Below the pieces are notes generated by a model. The model did not search any database, was not told the DNA's origin, and saw only the letters and a list, made by a program, of their open reading frames with translations. A stretch of DNA of 64,000 nt from Sphaerodactylus townsendi. Its lineage: Eukaryota. Numbering within the stretch: the first letter of the stretch is position 1; every line of letters starts with the position of its first letter. This document shows positions 16,905 through 56,102 of this stretch, piece by piece. The stretch lies in NCBI RefSeq assembly GCF_021028975.2, contig NC_059432.1, positions 46,562,001-46,626,000 of the forward strand, written 5' to 3'. A program made the position numbers and the translations under genes.

Positions 16905-17578
16905 TCTATATCCAGTGGGAACCTAAAGTGGTTTAAACCATTCTCATATCTTCCATTTTATCATTGCTGCAATCCTGTAAATTAGATTAGGATGAGAGTA
17001 TGTGACTGGCCCAAGCCCACCCAGCATGTTTCCGCTGCAGAGTGGGGACTCGAATCGGAGGCTGTTTCTGCACAGCCAGAACAGCGGGGCTGCATTGGCA
17101 TGATTCATGCTGATGCAAGCCCTGGGGTCATTCACACGAACAGTCCCGCTGGCTTCGCAGCTGGCTCTGCACAGCTGCGTAGTCCCACAAATGGCTCCTT
17201 ATCTCCTCCTGGCTTCCGTTGCTCTGTGGAGGCCAGGGGACATGCCCCCATGGCAAGAGCGATGTTAGCAGGGACAGAGGCCAGGAGGTGTGTCCCCTGG
17301 CCTCCACAGAGCGATGGAAGCCAGGAGGAGGTAAGGAGGTGTTTGGGGCCGGTGTGAGGAAAATGCCGCCTTCCACCCGCTGCAGTTAGCATGGCAGTGC
17401 ATGGAAGATGCCGCTTTTGAAAAACCTCGCCCTCTGAGTGAGGTTCAAAAGCAGCATTTTCATGCTGCAAACAGCACCCCAGGGACAGTGTTTTTACCAT
17501 CCCTAGGGTGCTGTTACTGAGCTGTGGGGAAACAGCCTCTCCCAGAAATGTATCCAGTGCACTAATCACTGTGCCATC
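16905..17578 (-). mobile_element. Squam3/MIR-like SINE split at its B box by a MITE
   Basis: gactggcccaag...ggggactcgaatcgga | insert | tctcccag...ccagtgcactaatcactgtgcca. Confidence 0.65.
17060..17537. mobile_element. Harbinger-like MITE, older relative of 2010-2550
   Basis: TIRs GGCTGTTTCTGCACAGC / GCTGTGGGGAAACAGCC; internal ~44-bp inverted repeat 17203-17246 / 17287-17330; no clean TSD. Confidence 0.7.
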
Positions 17579-18829: not shown

Positions 18830-19685
18830 TGTTTAAAGCAAAAATAATGTGGTCTTTAAAGCAAAAATAAAACATTCTGCAGATGTTTGACTTTTTTTGT
18901 TCACACAGTGTGAACAAAAAAAGCGTTGCCAGCCAAAATGGTTCTTTTTTTCCCACCTGCAACGCAACAGAACTCTTGTCAGTTTCATAGTTGCCTCCAC
19001 CATTCTCTGTTCCTCCGCCATTTGGTGAAGGTTTCCCATGGAGGTTTCCTCTGCTTGCAGCTCATCTGATGGCCGTTGTACTGTAAAAGGTAGAGGAACA
19101 CAATTTGGTTTGCCTGGTGATCCTGCACATGTGTTGTTTTTCCTTTTTTGTTTTGAGGGAGCTGTTTGCGAAGCTATGATGACCTGAATATGCACATATT
19201 GCAGGTTCTCATGTTGCATTGTCTTAGCTTTGCAGACAGCGCTTTCAAAACAAACTAAGGAAAAAGGACACATGCAGTGGGATCACCAGGTGAACCAAAC
19301 TGTATTCCTCTACTTTTTATAGTGCAATAGCCATCAGATTAGCTGCAAGCGGAGGAAACCTTCACCAAATGGTGGAGGCAGGAGGCTCCTGAAGAGGACA
19401 GAGAATGGTGGGTGCAACTTCAGTGAAAATGAAAGTAAGAGCTGGGGAGAGGAGGCAGAAGAGATGAAGTGTCTCCTGCCTGTTTTTGTTCTCAGGCAAG
19501 CAGGAGACGTCTTCAACCCATCTTCAGGAAAAAAAGATCACTGCTTTAGCGATTTTGGAAAAACCTGAGATAAGAGAAATAAAATAGCATGAAACATTTT
19601 GGGGAGAGAGCTGTGCAAACGTCTTTCCCTAAACCCTTTTTATAACATCCTCAAGACATTATATTTCTGATGTGCAGAAAAGGCC
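18830..19685. mobile_element. Long palindromic (foldback) MITE
   Basis: ~19010-19155 is inverted at ~19245-19380; ends tgtgcagaaaaggcc (Harbinger-like TIR). Left boundary approximate. Confidence 0.6.
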
Positions 19686-25377: not shown

Positions 25378-28312
25378 TAGGGTTGGTAAATGTGAAAAAA
25401 ATTCGGCCCCGGTTCGGATTCGGGTCCAGTTCAGATGTATGGGGTCGGATCCCCCCATATCCGAGCCTACCAGGCTCGGATACACCCGAATTTCCGAGAT
25501 TCTCGGGTGCTTTTTATTTTTTTTGCTGTTTTTCCCCATTTTGGCCTGCAGAGGGTGCATTTTAAAAGGTATTGGCTTGAGAATTTCAGGGTATCTTTTG
25601 CATACTGTCCTGATCATGCACCCCAAGTTTGGTGCAGTTTGGTTCAGGGGGGCTCAAGTTATGGACCCTCAAAGATAGCCCCTATATTCCATTGGCTCTC
25701 ATTGGAAACAATGGAATATAGGGGCTATCTTTGAGGGTCAGGCCCAATACCTAAACCAAACTTCTACCAATATACATGATCAAGTATTCAGAAAGATACC
25801 CTGAAAATTTTCAAATAATACTACAAGCACCAAGACACACTTGAATTCTGTGTTTTACATTGAATTTTTTTTCAATTGCTTTCAATGGAAATTCCTGGGG
25901 TGCCTGCAGGGGAGGCGCATTTTTAAAGAATGTCGTCACCAAACTTTCCAGGGGTGTCTTTACAAGACACTGTTTTGATCATACACCCCAAGTTTGGTGC
26001 ATTTTTTTTGGTTTCCAGGGGCCCAAGTTATGGACCCCCAAACAGAATGATCTATTATCACTTACATTGACTATCATTGGAAAACTATGGGTGATAATGG
26101 ATGACCACTGTTATAAGTCAGACCTGAAGCTACAGAAATGAGAGAACATGAAATGTCCTGAAGTACGCCCTGAAAGTTAAGTGTCACTAACTAGAAAAAA
26201 TGTTTTTTTGTAATTTTTTGTTGAACCTCCATGTACAGGAACAGGTGAAACAAAAACTTTTTTTCAGCTAGTGACACACCAAACTTTCAGGGTGTCTTCC
26301 AAGGACACTGTCTTCATCATACCCCCATGTTTGGTGCAGTGTGTGGCTCAGTGGGATCCAGAGTTATGGCCCCAAAGGGGTTACCCCATCCCATTGTTTC
26401 AATGGGACCTAATATAAGATATGGGCTATCCTTTGAGGGTCCATAGCAGGCCCCTGAACCAAACTGCACGCAAACCTGGGGGAAGCTTGTCAGCCAATGT
26501 CCTAAAAGACACCCCTGAGAGAATTTTTCATGTCCAATACCTTTAAAAATGTGTATCCCCCTGCAGGCACCCCAAGTGAATTCCCCCATTGACAGCAATT
26601 AAGAACGCAGAACATAAGAACATAAGAAATAGCCTGCTGCTGGATCAGACCGGAGTCCATCTAGTCCAGCATTCTGCTACTTTCACTTAATAGCCCACCA
26701 GGTGCCTTTGGGAGCTCACATGCAGGATGTAGAAAGCAATGGCCTTCTGCTGCTGCTGCTCCTATGAGCACCCTGGTCTGCTAAGGCATTTGCAATCTGT
26801 GAGATCAAGGAGGATCCAAGATTGGTAGCCATAGATTGACTTCTCCTCCATAAATCTGTCCAAGCCCTTTTTTAAAGCTATCCATGTTAGTGGCCATCAC
26901 CACCTCCTGTGGCAGCATATTCCAAACACCAATCACACGTTGCGTGAAGAAGTGTTTTCCTTTTTGTGAATCCTAATTCTTCCCCCCAGCATTTTTAATG
27001 AATGCCCCCTGGTTCTAGTATTGTGAGATTGGAAAAATTCAATACAAAACACAGAATCTTAGCGAGCAGAATTTCTTGGGGTTACTTACCAGGAGGAGCA
27101 TTTCTAGAGGAATTATCAGCATGAAAATTTCAGGGTATCTTCAGGAGACTTTCCTTATGATACCCCCTGAGTTTTATGCAATTTGGCTTAGGGGGTCCAG
27201 GAGTTATGGACCCCAACAGAGGGTGCCCCCCTATCCCTCATTGTTTCCAATGGGAGCTAAGGAAATGAGGGTCCATAACTCCTGGACCCCCTAAACCAAA
27301 CTGCACAAAACTTGGGGGGGGTATCAGAGGAAAGTCTCCTGAAGATACACTGTAATTTTAATGTCAGCTCTACCTCTAAAAATGCGCCCCACTTATCAGG
27401 CACATTTGCCCAAGATTCTTCATCTGTTATTAACTTTACCACTTTTTTTCAGCAGTAGCAGGCACACCATGCAGCCTGGCCTGCTACTGCTTCATTCATT
27501 CAGATCATTGCCGGAGGAGCAGCTTAGAAGCTCGGCTATGGGTAAGGGGAGGGGATTTCTTTTTGTAGGGAGTGGGTTGGAGGTTTTTTTTTTTTTTTGG
27601 GGGGGGGGTGGATTTCTTTTCCCATGTAAAGTGACTGGGAGGCAGCTGCCAGAGGGCTGGGGGAATGGATTCCGTTTTTCCCATCTTTTTTTTCTTTTAA
27701 ACCGTGTGTGGGTTTGGAGGGAGTTTGGAGGGAAGGTTTTGAATTTTTTGGGGTGAGGGACAGGGTGGGGTGCCACAGCTGAAGTGTGTGTGTGTGTGTG
27801 TGAGTGGAACCCTCCCCCTTATGCCGAGTCCCACATGATCTTTGGCAAGCTGCGGCTGGGAGGCGGCAGCTGGGGATAAGGGGAATCCTTTTTTCCCCTC
27901 TTTTCTTTTGTAGAGGATTTTTTGTTTTGTTTTGTATTGATGATCAGCCTTCTGGCTGGGAGGAATGCGGCTGGGGTGGGGAGTGGCAGGCAGCTATTGG
28001 GCTGCCGCCGGGAGGGTGGGTGGGTTGGTTTTAAACCCCCTCCCCCCCAGCTGAGCTTCGCAATCCTTCTGGCTGGAAGGAAGCAGCCTGTTGCATGCCG
28101 GCTGGGGCTTGGAGGTTCCCCTCCCTCTGCGGCTGTCTCGGAAGAGCTGCCGCTCGCTCGCAAGTTGCGGAAGAGCCCAATCCGAGCCCATGGCGCTCGG
28201 ATTGGGCATAGTTCAGAGGGGTCAGGGTCGGGCCCTTGGCCCTCCGAGCTCCTCCGAACTGGCTCTGCTCGGCTGGATCCTTGGATCGGGCCGAGCCGAA
28301 CCGCCACCTCTA
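25378..28312. mobile_element. 2.9-kb non-autonomous hAT element with internal alternating repeats
   Basis: Termini TAGGGTTGG / CCACCTCTA, subterminal TCGG/CCGA motifs, perfect 8-bp TSD CTGGGTGC (25370-77, 28313-20). Confidence 0.88.
26604..27030 (-). mobile_element. CR1-type LINE 3' end nested in the hAT element
   Basis: (AAGAACAT)n tail at ~26610-26630; homologous to 9190-9476. Confidence 0.85.
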
Positions 28313-28644
28313 CTGGGTGCAATGAGTATACTCCTTGGTAAGCTCCACATGCCTTGTCTTCTTCTGACCTCAGGCTCTCAGCCTGCCTGCCTGATCTCCT
28401 GTCTGTGCCTTGACTGTGGGCTGCCTTGGCCATGCCTTGGCCTTTGCCTGCTGCCTTCTCTGACTCTGGACTGTTTGGGACTATACTTTTGCTGCTACCT
28501 GCCCTGACTCTGGCCGGTCTTTACTACACCTCACTTCCTGTCTGCCTGAACTCTTTTCTAGCCATGCCCTAGCTAGCACCTGACGGCAGCACAGGAAGCT
28601 TCATGCTCCTGGTCTCTCTTGGCTTCTCTGAATTCTGGCTCTTA

Positions 28645-28795
28645 GGCCGCTTCCACACATGCAGAATAATGCACTTTCAATCCACTTTCAATGCACTTTG
28701 CAGCTGGATTTTTCTGTACAAAATAGCAAAATCCACTTGCAAACAGTTGTGAAAGTGGATTGAAAGTGGATTATTCTGCATGTGCGGAAGAAGCC
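28645..28795. mobile_element. 151-bp palindromic Harbinger-like MITE
   Basis: GGCCGCTTCCACACATGCAGAATAAT...ATTATTCTGCATGTGCGGAAGAAGCC; flanks TTA/TCA; same family as 30947 and 52819. Confidence 0.85.
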
Positions 28796-28825
28796 TCAGC
28801 CTGCCTGTCTGGACCTCCTGCCTGT

Positions 28826-30946: not shown

Positions 30947-31087
30947 GGCTCATTCCACACATGCAGAATAATGCACTTTCAAACTGCTTTCAGTGCTCTT
31001 TGAAGCTGTGCGGAATAGCAAAATCCATTTGCAAACAGTTGTGAAAGTGGTTTGAAAATGCATTATTTTGCGTGTGCGGAAGGGGCC
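30947..31087. mobile_element. 141-bp palindromic Harbinger-like MITE
   Basis: GGCTCATTCCACACA...TGTGCGGAAGGGGCC; flanks AAG/AAA. Confidence 0.85.
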
Positions 31088-32384
31088 AAAGCTTGGTATA
31101 AATTGTTGCCATGCAGTTTGTTTTATTATCTCTTACTTCCATGGCCTTTGTCTGCACTGATTTGGAACCTGAATCTCTGCCCTTACTGCAGCTAGTAATG
31201 GCAAATAGGAATTACGAGTCTCCAAAGTGCTGCTAGACTTTTAATACAATTATTTAATGGAAGGTGGCCCCCGAAAGCCCTCACACTTTGGCAACTGCCC
31301 TGCCTTGCTGAATACTGGTGCAGGAGGGACTCCAGAGGAGAGGGCGGGGGATCCATGCATGATCTCGCAGCCTGTACCTGATCCCAGGACCATTGTTAAG
31401 GCACTAGCCCAAAGCTGGCACTAACTATATATTTGAAATTCACAATACAATACTAAACAGAGTTGCATCCTTCCAATCCCATTGACTTCAATTGACCTAG
31501 AAAGGTGTAACTCTGCATAGGATGGCACTGTTATTGTTTCAGAATATTTTTAAAGAGCAGACATGGTTAAACTCTTGGGAAGTTATTCATCCTCTTCCTG
31601 TTCTGAAGCAGATATTTCACTCAGTGCATAGGTGCCTTTCAGATCTTAGAAGGCTGGCTGTCATGTATTCACTCAGATGAAACTGCAGGAGCTCTGAGGG
31701 GAATCTATGGTTTGTGCTTCTTTTCGATTCTGTCTGCTTGATTTTTCTCCATGTTTTTGGCACTTGTTTAGTTTTTGAACCTGTTAACTCAGCATGGATT
31801 TTATGCAGCTGGTAATATTATCATAGCCAGTTTCACAAAATAACTGTTCAGTGGCAGTAAATTTGCTTGTACTTGTTCTCCTTCCAGTGTCCTGGGATCA
31901 GATAGTTGAGGCTTGCAGTAGGAAGATGTGATTCCCCTCAATATCCTTAAGGTCAGTACCTGTTTTTTCTTGCCGTCTAAGAGGGCAATCCTAACTAGAG
32001 TTGCCCCCTTCTAAATCTGTTGACTTCGACCAAGGGGTGTTAATCTGCTCAGCAACACACTGTTGTGCTTTGAGAAGTACTCTATATCTGTGTTTGTGGC
32101 AATTGTTGGAAGTGCAGTGCTGATAGTCCATGTGATAGCTGTGAGTTGCTTTGTTTGTTACAGTGAGAGTATGGAGCATCAGCCCTGGGGGAAGCTGCTT
32201 TGGTGATCACTTCATGACAATTATAACATACACCTGTGGTGGTGAACCTATGGCACTCCAGATGTTCATGAACTACAATTCCCATCAGCCCCTGCCAGCA
32301 TGGCCAATTTCCATCTTGTCATATTGTTTCTGCAGTGGAAGATGACTGCTATTGGAGCTCATATAAAATGGGGTTCATCTTGTG

Positions 32385-38619: not shown

Positions 38620-40080
38620 CAAAACCAATTCTACTTCATGAAGATAATGCAACTGTTCTTTCTTGCTTGCGCATAGGATTAAGAGATCGTCTTTAAGCTT
38701 TTCTTTTGTATTGTCATGGTAATTTGTTTACCGATAATTACGCCAAATCCAAAACACTGTGTTTTCAGAAATATCCATCACAAAGAACAGTAAACCCATG
38801 GGTTCTCGTTGGGCATAGGATTGAGCAAGTGTCCAATTTCAACTACTTAACCTTTCCTTTTGCCATTTACAATAAGTGGAAATGTCATTATTTTCATCTT
38901 CTTGACACTACCAATGTGCATTTAGATGCAGTTATGAGAGTCTTTCATCAGTCTAGTGGGCAATTTATTCCTTTTGCTCTGGAAGTCTATAAGGCAAAAA
39001 TCAGATCTTTTCTGCTATGTCGAAATCCAATTGGGTTTCCTGCTCTTTCCTTTAAAATGGTATTCCTACAATCAAAATTTCTATGTACCATCTTTCAAGC
39101 ATCTAATTGTTTTTCAAATTCCAACTTATATTTCGAGACTGGTCTTGATTCCATCAGGACAGCCAGTATACTGTAATGGTTAAAGGCAGGTGTACTCTAA
39201 TTGGAGAATCAGGTTTGATTCTGCTCTCCTCCACATGAGGCTGTTGCCCAAAACTGGAGAACTGGGTTTGATTCCCCACTCCTGTACATGAAATCTGTTG
39301 GGTGACTTTGGGCCAATCACAGTTGCTCAGAATTCTCTCAGCCACACCTGCCCCTGCTGTGGGGAGAGGAAGGGAAGGAGTTTGTAAACAGCTTTGAGAC
39401 TCCTTATGGTTGAGAAAAGTGGGGCAAAAATCCAAAACTTCTCCTCTTCTTGTTAGCAGGGAAAACTTTGGTGAAATTTAGATTTTTTGTCCTAGACCAA
39501 GATTTTCTTTCTGATTTTTAAAATGGACTGAGCTTAACCCTTTTGTGTCTTTTTGGATAAAAAACAATAGATTAAAGACTTTTAAGTTTATAGATTCTCT
39601 ATCCAAGTTTTTCTCCAGACCTCCCTTTAGTTATGAGTAAGATACTCATAGATTTAGAATGAATGAACCATTTTGAATTATGCAGTGATGCCAAAAAGAA
39701 ATATGACCCTCCTTCTGGGGACTGAGTATCCCAACCTTTTCACTGTTTCCAGATTATTCAAAACTCTGTTTCAACCTTTCTGAGACTTTGCTTCATGGCC
39801 AGACATAATGCTTTATCCCTCACCCTAGTATTTGGCAGATTCTCAGACAGTCCAATCAGATAGAGTCTGCTTGTGTGGAAAGGCAGAGAAACACCAATTT
39901 TTAAAAAATTCAGCTGTGATTTATATTCCCCTCCTTTTATTACTCTGTTGATCTCACACTTTTCAGTATGTTCACATGGTTATCATTTAATATACTTGCT
40001 GTATGGTAAAGATAAGGCTGTTGTCCTATCCATAGCTCATTATTTAATTGCTGCCTTGAAGATTTATGCAAAGCTATAAT
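38620..40080 (+). mobile_element. Degenerate non-LTR retrotransposon RT/C-terminal region (RTE-X/L2-like)
   Basis: Decayed YADD box (catgaagataatgca), then NYAKSKTLCF...IEQVSNFNYL (cf. IEQVxxFKYLG) and YKAKI in ORF 38706..39176; interrupted by a SINE. Confidence 0.7.
39160..39452 (+). mobile_element. Full-length Squam3-like SINE with duplicated B-box segment
   Basis: agccagt...ggttaa head, two ggtttgattc segments, ggtgactttgggc core, (CTT)n tail. Confidence 0.8.
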
Positions 40081-44370: not shown

Positions 44371-46112
44371 TTTGATAGTAACTTAGGAAGGTTATGGCAA
44401 CAACTTTTAACATGTTTAAACACAGGACAATACTGGATTCATTTCAGTTTTCTTTATACCTTTGCACCCTTTTTTTTGCTTCACAAGTCTTTCTCCTTCT
44501 TTCTCTCCAGAACATAACTGGTATGACTGCTGTGTCTTACCAATCAGCTGAAGGGATCAATATTTCCAGTGCTGGAAACTCCTTGACTGAACCTGTGTCT
44601 GTGGAAACAATTTTTTTAAAACAAAACTTTGCCCTTTTCTACAAATTTCTGACAGAGCTTGGCTTGTTTCACGGGAGTCTTGTTTTCTAAGTGTCCAGGA
44701 ATTAGCTAGAAACTAGCTATGTGTCAAGGCCTGTCTCGACACTGTGTACTAATTTCATAAATGCCATCTGAAGGCAACAGAATTGACAGTTGCTTCAGAC
44801 TATCTTTATGAGTCCAAACTCATGTAGGCTGAGAAAATCACCCAGATATTCAAAGCCCTGACCTACTGCATATTTAGTGAAATGAATTGCTGGAGTGAAT
44901 TCTGTACCAAAAAGTAGACTTGCACACTCTCAAGAAGCAACAAAATTTTTATGAGGGGTTCTTTTTACTAGTCTGCCAGTAGCTTGCACTTCTTGAGTTT
45001 ATAAAGTACAGAACTTTCCTTGATACTGCCTTCCTTTCTACTGAATCTTATCTGAGGTATTTCAGCTCCCTATCTAATCTTTTTCACATTACCCAAACCA
45101 GATTGTACAACATTTGATTCTGGGAATACCCTCCTTTTTTGTTCCAACAGACTAATATTGCAATTCTACTGAAATTATTTGTCAACTTTCTCTTATAGCA
45201 AGCAAGTTGTTATTTTGCTCAAGCTGAAATCAAATGCATGAAAACTACTCACCTTTCTGTAAAAACCATTTGAGCAAATGTAACACTTTGTTTCATTCTG
45301 CAATCTCTCTTTGCTTGTCTTTTCTAATTTTGTTATTAAACGTTGTAAATGACGTAAATATTACAGGTTAAAAACCCATATTTATTATGGTAAAATGAAA
45401 TTTTTGAACTGTGGAGAAACAATGAATTCCTAGTACCTTGGTTTACATGATGATAAAAGGATGCCTCTGTCACTGGATGATAAAATGACTTTTGAAGATG
45501 ACTCCACACTGATACTATAACAGTTATTTTGTTAAAAAGGAGAAAAATGGTATATATTCCAAACATTTTGTCACAACTTAGGAGTGTAGTTGTCTAAGAT
45601 TATGTATTGAAAATTTTATCTGTTTATTTTCTGCCCTTTTCAAATGGTTATTTATTGTTTATGCTTCTGTGCTGAAGAATGAGCCTTTAGATGAAATAGT
45701 GCAATGTAATATTTTTATTTGTTCAAATAGTTTGTTAGTATCATTTTTTATTAATTCTTGGGGTAGGGAAAACAATGACTTGTACAAGGTTATTTGTAAT
45801 GGTCACTTTTCAAGTGTTTCTGTTAGCAGAGTGAAACAGCAAATGATGGCTGAGTTTGCAGAGATGAAATTAGTTATCAATGAACTCACTTCTCAAGGGG
45901 TTGGCCCCACATGCTGAACTGCTACCCTGCTGCAGACTCTTCACTAGAAGAATGCTACTGGCTGCCACTGTGCGTTCTATCAACTCATTGCAAAACAGTT
46001 AGAGTACATATTGCTTTGAATGCTTTGGGTAGAAAATAAACAAAACCCCCTGCCACCATTCTTCTCTGGCCCTCACCACTGCCATTACTGCCACTGAAGA
46101 AAACTGTATGAT

Positions 46113-46250
46113 TGTTATGGGTTTTTCAGGCCGTGTGGCTGTGGTCTGGTAGATCTTGTTCCTAACATTTCACCTTCATCTGTAGCTGGCATCTTCAGAG
46201 GTGTATCACAGAGATAAGCCTGTTACACACTGTGTCTGTTACACACTGTG
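46113..46250 (-). mobile_element. Penelope-like element end, decayed
   Basis: Homologous to 47805-47877 (catctgt.gctggcatcttcagagg). Confidence 0.7.
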
Positions 46251-47804
46251 CATGATAATTTTGGTTTTACAGGCTGTTATTTTCTGAGGATTATCAGAAT
46301 TATAAATGTTAGTTTCTGTCAGCATGAAAACTCCATTTGATTGGCTTTTCTCTTTCTCCTGCATTTTGATGCTGAGAACTTTTATTCTCTTCCACTTACC
46401 TGACACCCAAAAAATGAATGTCATGCCATCTATAGTACAAAAGCTGAGATCTGACAAAGGAGAAGAAAAATTATGAATAATTCTGCATAGTTGCATTACC
46501 CACAATGGCAGCCACAGAGAGAAAACAAGCTCTCTCTCTCTCATCAAGCCCTCAGATCATCAATTAGGGCAATTACTTTATAAAAAAATACAGTATAAAG
46601 CATCTTGCCACTTTAGCATTCAGACCTCAGAAAAAACTAAAACCTGTATTAATATTTCCTACTAAAACATTCGTAGACCGTAAAGATCTAATTTGGACTG
46701 TGGAATTTCACACCGCAAATTCCAGATCAGTGCCGTACACACACTGTTACTAATCGGAGGCTTCCTTTCCACTCCTTACTTAGAAATATTTCCAGGACCT
46801 GAATATTCCCACCATCTCACCTTTGCACTGCTAGCTCACCTGGATCACTATTTCTTCCTTCCAAGCTCAGGAAAAGGGAAACTTATTATATTTGTTTTAA
46901 GTCTCTAGCCTTATCTGAAAAAATAATTTGTTTCCAAGTGTACCACCATTTTGTGAAAAGGAAAGCGCCATTCATGTCATATGTTACATGCCTCTGCTTC
47001 TTGTCTGTTCTCACTTTTGATCACAGCTTGCTTTGCTATTTAGCACTTCTGATCTGCTCCAAACATTTGAGGGCATTTGGGGTTGCCATAGAGCTGCTGC
47101 ACAGGTTACAATTTTTGTGGAAATATAAATTGGATCCAAACCATCACATGGGAAATATCTTCATGCCAATGGTGACTGGTCATAGAGATTTACAGCCCAA
47201 TCCAGATGATAGTGGGCAAATCTATTGTGGAATCAGGAATGCACCATGAGTGCCCACCTTACCAGTGTAAAGGGCAAATACGCTGATGGGATTGCCGAAT
47301 ATGCAGGTGGTGGACACAGTGTGGCTCTTCAGTGTGCAAACCTAGAAATCTGGGCTATGATGACATTTGTCAAGCACAAGATCTCATCCTGGAGGAGTGG
47401 AAGCAGTCTGGGGTTGCTTTCAGAGGCAGAGCCGAGTGTAGTCAACTGCCAAAAGACTTTCAGCCCATGAATGCTCCCATGCTGGTGGCAAAGTTTCATT
47501 TTGTAACTCAGTTGCTTCAATGGTTTGCTGGGTAGCAGGTCTTTCCCTCCATTTTTGCCTTTTCTATGCTGCCCTGGACCCCTTTGGAGGTTGTGGGGCT
47601 ACACCGCTGCTGTGCTATCCCCAGCTGCCATGCACTCCCCCCCCCCACCGAAAGCTTTTGGCCTGTGCAGAAATGGCCTATCATATCACATGTACCAGAT
47701 ATTCACTCAGAAACACATTAGTTACGGTACTGGGATAATGAATTAGTCGGTGATGTAACCTTAATTTCCACAGCCCGGAATCCGCCGTTGCTGTATATGG
47801 ACAG

Positions 47805-47900
47805 ACTGTATGGCCGTGTTCTAGCAGCATTCTCTCCTGACGTTTCGCCTGCATCTGTGGCTGGCATCTTCAGAGGATCATGATCATCCTCTGGAAGATC
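47805..47900 (-). mobile_element. Young Penelope-like element end with short inverted extension
   Basis: Reverse complement cctctgaagatgccagccacagatgcaggcgaaacgtcaggagagaatgctgctagaacacggccatacag; inverted tcctctggaagat at 47887-47899. Confidence 0.75.
47835..47877 (-). ncRNA. Minimal type-I hammerhead ribozyme motif
   Basis: UCCU-CUGAAGA-U-GCC(13-nt loop)GGC-GAAA-C-GUC-AGGA: both core boxes, stems I and II, palindromic ACGU in place of stem III. Confidence 0.75.
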
Positions 47901-48689
47901 CTATTAACTCTTTCACTAGAGTCATCCTCTAACTCAGGCTCCCTTTCTCGTCCATAATATATTTTTTGAGCTTTTGAGCTTTTTGATTCTTTTGTTTCAT
48001 CATGTTTAGCTATAGGTACACTCTGAGTAGTTACTATGGATATTTAACAGGTTACAAAAAAGTGAGTAGACAAATAATGGCTGAAATTAAACTGCAAAAT
48101 CTACATCTACCAGTTAATTTATGTATCGCCAACCCACCATTTTAAGTGAATATCCCTCGGACACCTCCACATCCCTAAAAACCTTCTTTAGGAAGATGCT
48201 GCTGGTCCTAACTTGGGATATTGCTGTTACCCTGGCCAGATGCAATGTTCTTCTCTCTATTAGATATAATAGAGAGTGCCACCTTATCTACTGACCGGTG
48301 AAATCAGCTGTAATTGCTCGAGGAGCGCTGTCACCACGTTCTCCATCGCCCTATATTGACACAGTGGAAAAACTACTCCAACCCTCTTATGGCTGGATTA
48401 GGCAGCCTGTAGATGTTGCCGAAACAAATTCCTGCTAGACAGCAGATTCAGCTACCATTCTTGGAACCAACTGCCGGATTTCTATTACTGTCATTACCGA
48501 GCGATTCCCAAGTATTTGGCAGACTACAATTTTAACTCAAGGCCAATATTTTTGCTTTTTATACATAATAGATCAAATAGATTTTAAATTAACTTAACTT
48601 CTGTTGGCATAACTGATATGCACCATTCAAGGGGTTTGTTTCAAATTAAGAATGTCCTGGTAAACTTGCTTGTGAGCTGTTGTGAGCTC

Positions 48690-48870
48690 CAGGATGGTAT
48701 AGCAGTTAACAGGTCATGCTATGACTAGTGAAATCTGGATTCCAACCTTTGCTCACCCATAAAGCTTACTGGCCTGTTTCTTTATCTCAGCCTAACATAC
48801 CTCACAGATAAAACAGAACAGAGAACAATGGACACCGTTCTAAGTTCCTTGGAGAAGTGTGGGATAAAAA
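48690..48870 (+). mobile_element. Old MIR/Squam3-like SINE
   Basis: ggatggtatagcagttaa head; ctcagcctaacatacctcacag core; gtgggataaaaat end. Confidence 0.6.
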
Positions 48871-49414
48871 TTTGATTCAGGATCATTAGTTGACAAATTA
48901 CTCATGTAAACTATCAATACAGTATTCCTTTAAGAAGTAAAGTCTCATCTGAGCATTTTGAAAAACTCTGTATCCACTGAGGGTGTGGACCGCTGGAGTT
49001 CAGGCTTCAGATTCCATAGATGGCTTCACTCCAAACCCTCTGGTGGTTGCCAAATACTTCAGGAAAAAGAGATGAATCATGACAAAGCAACAACAAACTT
49101 TATGAGGCTGTCTCTGTGCATCATAAAATAGCAGTAGAGGGCATAAGCAGTTCTATTCTCTAACCTAAACCTTGAGAAAGTTAAAGTTGTTTGGACTCTA
49201 TCAGAAATGTACAAATTTAAATTTTCCTTTTGTCAGTACTCCTAAAATCTTATTCTCCTTGCCTTTTCCTTAGCAAACACACACCCTAAATGAAATAACT
49301 CATTCAGAGTACATTTCATAAAAAAAAAAAAAAAGGTGTGGTGCGAAAATACTCCCAGCTAAGGTCACCTTTACAGAGTGATGAACAACTCTATATGAAT
49401 TTCAATGGGATTTT

Positions 49415-49850
49415 GCATAAACGGACTTCGCGTTTGCGCGCCTTTGTTTGGTGCTGGTTGAACGAACGGTCTTGCGGCAGGCACGGTGCGGGGCGGGGAT
49501 GGCGTTTGTTCTGGTTTCTCCGGTGGGATTGAGCGGGATGGCGCTCTGGGATGGGCGTTGAATGGCCGCGCGGCGCTTCGGTCAGCAGGTGGATGCGTAG
49601 AGCAATTCAGTACTTTTCGGAAGGGCGCTACGGACACGAGAAAAGTGAACAGTGCGATCGGGCGGGCGGCGTGATTTGGGACGGGGTTGCGTATGATGGC
49701 GTTGGTGGGTTGGGATGGGACGCGTGGTATACCAGTAGTGGCCTATTATTGCCACTAAAAAGATACCTAATTGGAATCTCTCCAATTTGTCCCATAAATA
49801 ACTTAGAGGCCGATTATCGCCGCGTCTCACGCCCTGCTTGGAGTTAAGAT
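49415..49850. promoter_or_regulatory. CpG-island-like putative promoter
   Basis: Dense CpG with no TIR/TSD or repeat match in the window; GC boxes (GGGGCGGGG, GGGCGGGCGG); GATGGCG YY1-like cores. Confidence 0.65.
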
Positions 49851-50894
49851 ATATGCTCCGGGGCAGGTGGCCATGGAATATTCCACGAAGCCCACATTCA
49901 CTTTCCATTTCTCTGTGCCAAATGTACTTTTAAAAGAAAGTTTAGTTTTCTTTGCCACTTAAGAGCAATGAGTGATTTACCAGTAAGAACATCTTTGCTG
50001 AACTGTTTCCCACTGTCGGCCCTTCCAGCTTCCACCACCTAACCATCCCTCCACCCTTCCCTCCCCTCGCTGTGGCAATGCACCATCTTCTTCCTCCTTC
50101 TATCTCCTTCTGCCCTCCTTCACCTACATTGCGAAAAGAGCCTCCCCTTAAAATCTCAGTAGCGTAGTTTAACATACCAGCTGCATAAGATATTTGAATT
50201 GTTATAGCTATTGAACTACTAAGATGAGGTGATTTCATTCTCCCAGAGTCCACCAGAGGGTGGAGTGTAGGGAGGATATTGATCATCGGTTAGGGAACAA
50301 GTGTCCTGACTATACAAATGATATTCAATCCAATGGACAAGATGCTGTTCAGCCCTGCAACAAGAAATGCACTGAACTCCAGGATAAAGGGTAATGCCCA
50401 CTGCAGACAGGGCAAGAAGAATGGGGAAATAGGACAATGAGTAATAACAGCAAACATGCTTAAGCAAAGTGAATGCTCGTTCTGATTATGGTAAACTCCC
50501 TGTGCATAATGGGCCTAAGAGTATCTCAAACACAACTCCTTCCTATCAAAATATCTCTCCACCACTCATTATTTGGAAATGTTTCCCAGGCTCGGGACCT
50601 CCTTTCTCTACAATTCCAGCCAATCATATGGCCTGCCTGTAGGCTCATCTTGCATCATCTGCACTTTCAAAGCTCTTAGAGAAGAGAATCTTCTGTTCTG
50701 GATGAAATCTTCTGGTTCTAAAACTGGAGTCAGAATCATCATTCCCTAACTGAAAATCTTCTAAGCTCCGCGCCAGCTTTGTTATTCTTATGTGTAGCTA
50801 CCATTGCACAACACTCCAAATAATGTGTCATTGCTCCTCTCGAAAATACGTGCATTTTCTGCAGGTCAGGTGATCCTTATACCCCCAGGACTGT

Positions 50895-51220
50895 TTACCG
50901 CGGAATGGTCCCAGTAGCATTAAGGAAGACGCCCAATCGACTTACTGTCCCTGCGACCGTCAATTACGCCAGCTGGGGCCAGTTGGCCCTCACGTGACCA
51001 CTCCGGTGCTGGGGCAGGTATCTGACCTGGCGACAACGACAGTTAGTAGCGGGGTTATTCGTTCAGTTTGATGAAGGGATAAATAAATCAATAACTTCCG
51101 TTCCAAAACCTAAACTCAGGGGAGGCGAGGTGGGAAAATAAGCGACCGTCGCCAGCTAAAGCCAGTGGCCTTGACTGTGAAACAGCTGCACCTAACGACA
51201 GCTCCCTGGGACGGCGTTTT
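50895..51220. promoter_or_regulatory. CpG-enriched segment with E-box (TCACGTGA), CCAAT and ETS-like ACTTCCG
   Basis: Locally retained CpGs in apparently unique sequence. Confidence 0.4.
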
Positions 51221-52818
51221 TTTGCCATCCCAGAGTAAAGACCTAATGTGGAAAGGGCCCATGCTTCAGAAGTACAACATAGTTTTGACCCCACTGATCT
51301 TTTTTTTCGGTGGGTGGGAATTACTTTTGGTTTGTTGCTGTGTAGATGGTTGGACTCCTGTCTTCAACAGATCTGGACATACGGATGGAGTGATGGATTA
51401 CTTGTCTGATGACCCGCCCCTCTTATTCTCCCTCTTTGATTTTTGCCTTCTCTGTCTTGAATGGAATACATTGCATGGTATGCATAAGTGCTTACAGCAG
51501 TTGGCTATTAACATGGACATTTCAGTGCTGGTTGTTATTTTGGTATTGATATTATGTTGACTGCTTGAGTGCACTTGAGTAGCCCAGCCATCCATTTGCA
51601 TCAATAAGTGTTGTTTTGATTTTGCTGTCTGGAGTCTCAGTACTTCTTCCAAGTTTGGACATGAATTACACTGTTTTGTCAGCATATCCATTACAATGTT
51701 TTGTATGTCTCACTGCTCAGTCGGGGGCATAACCCTAAACCTATAGAACCTAAGACAGCAGCTCTTGTAATATTGGAGCGAGAGAAGTGGAAGGAAACCT
51801 GATTTTTTAAGGCAAAGCTATCCTACTGTGAATTTGTGCTCAAATTGGAAAATGGGCCTCATTTACACTGACCTGTTCCATTGTGAGCCCACATTTCCGT
51901 TCCCTTTTATCTTCACCATTGTTTTGCTTAAGCTAGGGTGATATCTATTTTGCATCAATCCTTATCACTTAATGGCACAAAATGACATAAGAGAAGCAAA
52001 TGAATTTGAGACACCAGTGCAGGGAATGGTCAAAATGAAAAGGTTCATAGCATCAGTATATATATTTTTTAAAATGAACATGGCAGATCCTTATATCTCT
52101 AATTTCAAAGTTAACAAATGGGAGACGTTCAGATTAGAATGTCTGAATACATATGGTCAGGTAGTATAATTTTCCACAGAGATCTATCTCTACCCTGCTC
52201 CAAAGAATGTTAGGAATGTCATTCCATTAGCAAGCTCCCACAGTTACATTGACTGGAATTTTGTATATGTGCTTAACAAGTTTTTGGATTTTATTATCAA
52301 TATTTGGCCAATATAATCAGCTTTTCTCAAGACCACTTCTATTCACACAGGAACAGGCTGGGCAGTATGTATCTTTTGCATCAAGCTCTCCAAATATTTT
52401 TGCCGCAAAAACATCATGTAAGATCATTTGAAGGTAAACCTTTAATATTTCTCCTTTAACTATATCTTTTAAAGATTATTTTAGATTATTTGGAAATTGA
52501 TATGCATTTGCCCCCAGTTTTAAAAATGCCTATAATGTGGCTTATCCATTTTGTAGTTTTCATCCCTGAAAAAGAAATCATCCCTTTACATTTGCTTTGT
52601 TGCTTTCATGGCCTTTTGTTTCCCTCATCGCTATGGGACTCCTTGTGGCAGATGTTGCGTTGGTGTATTGTGTCATGATCTTTGAGGGGGTGCATATCCT
52701 GAGGCATCAAGTTTTTCAAAGACTCTGTTGCGACACAGAGGTCTAAGAAGAGTCTTTGGCACCTTACCTTGTACTTGTGTTTTAGCAAATTTTCTGTTGG
52801 ATTGTAGTTTGTGTCTGT

Positions 52819-52960
52819 GGCTTCTTCCACACACGCAAAATAATGTGTTTTCAAACCACTTTCACAACTGTTTTGCGTGGAATTTTGCTATTCCTTTTAG
52901 CTTCAAAGAACTGAAAGCAGTTTGAAAGTGCATTATTCTGCATGCATCTTGGAATAGGCC
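52819..52960. mobile_element. 142-bp palindromic Harbinger-like MITE
   Basis: GGCTTCTTCCACACA...GGAATAGGCC; TGT duplicated on both sides; inverted copy of 30947-31087. Confidence 0.85.
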
Positions 52961-55899: not shown

Positions 55900-56102
55900 N
55901 NNNNNNNNNNNNNNNNNNNNNNNNNNNNNNNNNNNNNNNNNNNNNNNNNNNNNNNNNNNNNNNNNNNNNNNNNNNNNNNNNNNNNNNNNNNNNNNNNNNN
56001 NNNNNNNNNNNNNNNNNNNNNNNNNNNNNNNNNNNNNNNNNNNNNNNNNNNNNNNNNNNNNNNNNNNNNNNNNNNNNNNNNNNNNNNNNNNNNNNNNNNN
56101 NN
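55900..56102. other. Assembly gap (203 N)
   Basis: Run of N. Confidence 1.

Follow-up and report, generated by a model that had tools for sequence, protein, structure and literature searches.

Does the 64,000-nucleotide stretch of Sphaerodactylus townsendi DNA analysed here (the window) hold a young hammerhead ribozyme that could cut host transcripts, or the end of an ordinary retroelement copy? A first-pass annotation had placed an intact minimal hammerhead of a Penelope-like element (PLE) on its minus strand, and had described the copy as young and perhaps catalytically competent. The explanation that we regard as very probable is that the motif is the hammerhead end of a Poseidon-type PLE close to PAc, the Poseidon element of the green anole, in a short truncated copy, one among many, that is likely silent at this site.

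A minimal type-I hammerhead motif

The motif occupies 47835..47877 on the minus strand (47877-47835), and a base-by-base reading resolved it into the following parts:

47877-47874, minus strand: stem I 5' arm, UCCU
47873-47867, minus strand: CUGAAGA box
47866, minus strand: bulged U
47865-47863 and 47849-47847, minus strand: stem II, GCC paired with GGC
47846-47843, minus strand: GAAA box
47843-47840, minus strand: ACGU palindrome; no helix III
47842 and 47841-47839, minus strand: C, then the GUC triplet
between 47839 and 47838, minus strand: predicted cut site, after GUC
47838-47835, minus strand: stem I 3' arm, AGGA

The boxes, stems and coordinates of the first-pass annotation were confirmed in this reading, and the predicted cut and the palindrome replacing stem III were both found where it had placed them. 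Stem I has 4 bp. In stem II, 3 bp are followed by a mismatch and 2 more pairs, and the loop is open. A single bulged base (U47866) lies between A9 and G10.1, and G47865-C47847 forms the G10.1-C11.1 pair. The motif thus combines CUGANGA and GAAA boxes, an NUH triplet, a short helix I and a helix II with no helix III, as the minimal type-I form requires; all catalytic nucleotides are present and both CpGs inside the motif are intact. It fits the consensus given for minimal hammerheads of metazoan PLEs in the cited part of Cervera and De la Pena 2014 (PMC4209133), namely CUGANGA followed by one bulged nucleotide, G10.1-C11.1, palindromic positions 15-16 and no helix III. Compared with the hammerheads described there, stem II of the window motif is short and its loop open, and the lizard-type family to which it belongs is absent among the examined rows of their Fig S3.

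A type-I descriptor, one of the checks proposed for the motif, found it as the sole match on either strand of the 64 kb, whereas 40 Markov-1 control sequences of 64 kb each yielded 4 loose matches and 0 of the minimal form. A covariance search, also proposed, did not recover it: Rfam returned 0 matches for the motif at gathering score, and none of the 5 matches at E<=10 was to a hammerhead family. A degenerate motif search of viral contigs gave 0 matches. That the letters resemble a hammerhead by chance is next to inconceivable, although Rfam is silent and the 61-nt fold is unremarkable (z -0.29): the controls held no minimal form, the motif belongs to a high-copy family, and its region is 85% identical to that of an assayed ribozyme, PAc, a match that rules chance out. 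The motif is a genuine minimal hammerhead motif, of an already known kind.

Relationship to the Poseidon element PAc

Frangieh et al. 2024 print the RNA of PAc (Poseidon_Ac, Anolis carolinensis; PMC11167929), and the comparisons that follow refer to that portion of their paper. Aligned by eye, the window copy and PAc share 64 of 75 nt over 47876-47802, and the figure within the motif is 37 of 43 nt; the homology spans the pLTR-ORF junction of PAc. The core boxes, stem II and the ACGU palindrome are identical, and the differences fall at N7, at four positions of loop II and at the outermost pair of stem I, which has 4 bp here. The ORF of PAc starts at stem II and its ribozyme is cut 26 nt past the start codon, and the same spacing is found in the window copy, where the ATG (47867-47865) overlaps A9, the bulge and G10.1. 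PAc also has family sequence upstream and downstream that is homologous to reads of the window family. Unlike PAc, which comes from another species, the window copy is truncated, with neither ORF body nor upstream pLTR.

The match to PAc, seen by eye, and the overlap with the ORF start support the annotation of the motif as a minimal type-I hammerhead of a PLE, and point to a Poseidon-type element whose ORF begins within this ribozyme. The match to PAc also points to a squamate reptile as the host. A protein search with the 49-residue frame, a weak test, found 0 of 42 candidates at E<=10; membership rests on the by-eye DNA comparison because this search gave no link to full-length proteins. 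According to the same part of PMC4209133, metazoan Penelope minimal hammerheads are mostly scattered single motifs from truncated elements. The motif very probably marks the hammerhead-bearing end of a Penelope element similar to PAc, already known and ordinary.

A truncated copy with a fold-back arm

The insertion is truncated, with a length of ~115 nt. Besides the motif, the following parts were located:

47802..47867, minus strand: first 22 codons of the element ORF, 56/66 nt identical to PAc by eye
47766..47805, minus strand: diverged or garbled 3' part resembling the PAc stem-loop and 'tail' region; outer boundary approximate
47866..47899: fold-back junction, with an inverted arm (~47885-47899) complementary to the hammerhead's 5' half and a pivot at ~47880-47886

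The copy is a remnant and not an autonomous EN+ PLE, because its frame ends after 49 codons and no reverse transcriptase (RT) or GIY-YIG family matched any of the 281 ORFs at 20.0-55.7 kb that were compared with Pfam (a further 124 ORFs at 1-20 kb and 78 at 56-64 kb lie outside this scope). Three weak matches under curated cut-offs were obtained from the 281 ORFs, and no host exon was identified among them. No target-site duplication was found by eye. At the 3' part (47766..47805), family reads depart from the window letters at 47806/47802, the likeness to PAc is about 55-60% by eye, and a hairpin is predicted.

The fold-back at 47866-47899 was detected by self-BLAST (E=0.003) and has an energy of -17.7 kcal/mol, a value reached by 57 of 6371 40-nt windows. 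Its inverted arm does not extend past 47900 above chance (179 of 500 controls), and opposite-strand joints at 47879 occur among the family contigs. In the cited sections of Craig et al. 2021 (PMC8557442), PLEs typically show inverted 5'-truncated copies and tails of 30-40 bp, and the EN+ PLE fold-back unit consists of an inverted 5'-truncated copy beside the 5' end with such a tail as an option. The window copy may follow this plan, with only ~14 nt of inverted arm recognisable: the short arm is significant, its extension is not, and the tail region is diverged. The arm sits in a stretch where the letters of the window are doubtful.

A dispersed family and a second copy

Four of the 11 listed sequencing runs (X1, X4 and X5, DNA; X9, RNA) were aligned to 46001-49900 at 82% likeness. 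The three DNA runs contributed 32,607, 34,880 and 43,788 contigs, with depth concentrated on two copies; the summed depth, which is not a copy number, reached millions on these copies versus about 20-50 on unique flanks. Contig depth in all three runs therefore identifies a dispersed high-copy repeat. The loose ends of the contigs show that the family continues both upstream and downstream with PAc-like letters (the downstream stem-loop agrees at 24/31 by eye). For contigs of a second subfamily, the fit is limited to the ribozyme (47835-47876), a conservation in which the overlapping ORF start could share. The core is kept in comparison with both PAc and the second copy, which is located as follows:

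46110..46236, minus strand: the older of the two copies, from a different subfamily and oriented like the first, at a distance of 1675 nt
46201-46161, minus strand: its motif; stem I has 3 bp, positions 10.1-11.1 hold G-U, the palindrome is AUGU and the triplet GUU

The second copy is 76% identical to the first over 75 nt (E=1e-9) and has lost both CpGs. A 16-bp tandem duplication is present at 46220-46250, at this copy.

Retrozymes, which the cited part of a preprint (bioRxiv 10.64898/2026.07.22.740005) describes from reptiles and suggests to have arisen from the ends of Penelope elements, provide another possible context: like the animal non-LTR retrozymes described there, the window copy is non-coding, hammerhead-bearing and Penelope-related. 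As a unit of a non-autonomous tandem array, it would contribute to circular RNA made by cutting between repeats. We consider this hardly credible and rejected it, as the window copy is not in tandem: no array was found at the site (0/16 rows), and the only other copy belongs to a different subfamily, with mostly single-copy DNA in between.

Age of the insertion and quality of the surrounding letters

Unique contigs of X1, X4 and X5 end 165, 177 and 136 letters past 47644-47650, and other unique contigs of these runs begin 49, 50 and 133 letters before 47950-47952, from which we infer that a repeat sits at the motif site in all three organisms. On the left flank, X4 differs from the window at 13 of 1425 letters and X5 at 45 of 1424. 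The insertion probably predates a 3% split and is probably not new, because the organisms whose unique contigs all break at the motif site are as much as 3.2% apart. The claim that the copy is young therefore finds no support.

The intact CpGs, which had been taken as a sign of youth, do not restore that claim, since the consensus-like core stands between stretches that depart from three runs. X1 equals the window throughout three pieces (0 differences, 2,079 letters), whereas the 283 letters at 47950-48108 and 49284-49407 contain 14 substitutions and 21 gap letters (Fisher p=8e-34 versus the three pieces); X4 and X5 carry most of X1's listed letters in these two intervals. Family reads fit 47806-47879, which includes the ribozyme core, and leave abruptly on both sides. 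Moreover, the best run contains just 0.40 of the sampled words of 47300-48400. The departures of the window from the three largely agreeing DNA runs cover 47651-48679 and 49203-49900, between X1-identical stretches. CpG o/e is raised in the same two intervals (0.40-1.21 versus a median of 0.16).

Both intervals are likely error-rich long-read patches, and Nanopore base calls are known to degrade at inverted duplications (cited part of PMC7229812). On this evidence we give slightly better than an even chance to the motif being partly an assembly product: a real copy would lie in a long-read patch rich in errors, and short reads from other copies would have shifted its repeat core to the majority sequence of the family. 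A divergent haplotype, a private insertion or paralogous patches could produce similar tables, and depth holes prove nothing, yet an error-rich patch with a polished repeat core is the simplest reading. It is compatible with the truncated Poseidon-type copy favoured here and undermines only the view of the motif as intact and young. The intact CpGs may reflect assembly polishing and therefore do not show youth; a motif can appear young and intact merely through how the genome was assembled.

The CpG-rich stretch at 49.4 kb

The first-pass annotation had proposed that a minus-strand transcript from a nearby CpG island would include the motif. The stretch in question is:

49408..49900: CpG-rich stretch, the proposed CpG island, not part of the element; CpG o/e 1.21

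Its CpG-rich letters and its distance of about 1.5 kb from the motif hold within the window, but its presence is not supported by the three DNA runs. Depth is 0 at 49511-49900 in all four runs (three DNA, one RNA), a hole that alone proves nothing about absence from the genome, and three contigs covering 49284-49407 go on for 771-777 letters that did not align there. These genomes do not have the 'CpG island' in common, and 49408-49900 likely stems from the assembly process or from a private insertion. The start of the stretch (49410-49445) presumably resembles a nanopore sequencing adapter, which a literature search did not confirm. Another CpG-raised stretch (50501-51300, o/e 0.58) lies outside the read-aligned region.

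Transcription, folding and cleavage

The run search listed no RNA run that contains the window sequence. The RNA run X9 is one run of a related organism, of which about 6% was read, and its mates are equal on both strands. It gave 7,435 reads aligned to 46001-49900, of which 71% continue unlike the window, with a depth of 716-818 per direction in two peak bins. In this one run, depth was 0 on the clean unique flanks 46261-47170 and 48861-49250. A transcript running from the CpG-rich stretch through the motif thus received no support, as RNA depth was 0 both at 49511-49900 and on the clean stretch between. RNA ends at the cut site had been proposed as a further check; no pile-up of read ends occurs at 47838/47839 in X9, a result that, in one library of fragmented cDNA, is uninformative on cleavage.

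Secondary-structure models, which leave out tertiary contacts, Mg2+ and protein help, gave the hammerhead fold a probability of 8e-3 for the isolated motif and 8.5e-4 with its 3' flank (constrained folding). Stem II pairing in the isolated motif was 0.96 and that of stem I only about 0.1. In four 37 C constructs including the upstream arm, constrained folding gave the hammerhead 4e-7 to 7e-10, with CUGAAGA 96-100% paired, so that the adjacent inverted arm is predicted to sequester this box in read-through RNA. A dimeric stem III formed by an ACGU duplex would be worth -1.7 kcal/mol if the partner were an identical copy and +0.1 if it were the second copy; a cis-dimer with the latter was rejected on the basis of this value.

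Cleavage of minimal hammerheads as dimers had been put forward as established. The lack of stem III stands, but the statement on dimers is too strong: the Schistosoma minimal hammerhead described in PMC4209133 is uncut as a monomer and cut weakly as dimers. For PAc, the cited part of PMC11167929 describes a ribozyme that is not cleaved without PAc protein and is dispensable for insertion in vitro, and it records no RNA-seq ends at the cut site.

These results bear on whether a young active copy cuts a host minus-strand transcript that starts at the proposed island at 49.4 kb, acting by itself or dimerised with the 46.2-kb copy or with family RNA in trans. The core nucleotides and both CpGs of the motif are intact, a second copy lies on the same strand 1675 nt away, and family RNA is present in the related organism; partners in trans exist, because this RNA is abundant (7,435 reads). 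Nevertheless, we consider such activity very unlikely in view of the predicted sequestration of the core, the weak stem III with either partner, the lack of RNA on the clean flanks and of a read-end pile-up (the latter weak, given fragmented cDNA), the CpG-rich stretch left uncovered in three DNA runs, and the protein requirement and missing cut-site ends of PAc. Catalytic competence, suggested in the first-pass annotation, is left unsupported by the predicted sequestration and by PAc remaining uncut without its protein.

Proposed origin and silence of the copy

The preferred reading, a truncated Poseidon-type copy close to PAc, can be given a course of events modelled on the PAc mechanism. 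The element protein, made by an intact copy elsewhere, would have nicked AT-rich DNA; reverse transcription would have begun about 80-118 nt into the ORF; and synthesis may have ended a short way upstream of the ribozyme, where a fold-back would have left the short inverted arm. In intact elements the motif would be cut after GUC with the aid of the element protein, and cutting would not be needed for insertion in vitro, as shown for PAc only. The copy is likely silent at this site because of the predicted absence of a stable stem III, the lack of an intact partner, the expected pairing of CUGAAGA with the arm in read-through RNA, and the absence of observed flank transcription.

A single copy such as this is of little weight, since the literature already describes hammerheads from elements of this type, including an assay of one that is nearly identical. 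The copy does offer a natural test of whether cleavage is prevented by a fold-back arm, a point relevant to the role of these ribozymes and to why genomes tolerate so many. With respect to the catalytic box, Penelope fold-back insertions might be self-disarming in general, many scattered copies being equipped with a sequence antisense to that box, an idea that we regard as speculative and rather unlikely. A pivot just upstream of the ribozyme would place the arm antisense to the catalytic box, so that host transcripts from either strand would not be cut; if true, self-disarming arms would let genomes tolerate tens of thousands of hammerheads.

Other features of the window

A 159-codon frame at 38697-39176 (plus strand), which gave no Pfam match, resembles the terminal part of a decayed reverse transcriptase of LINE type. 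An assembly gap lies at about 55900-56100, and the whole window contains 203 N. Short palindromic repeat families, like miniature inverted-repeat elements, are present at 28641-28799, 30947-31095 and 52815-52944, and further families of this kind occur at 25570-27363, 17185-17348 and 19039-19364.
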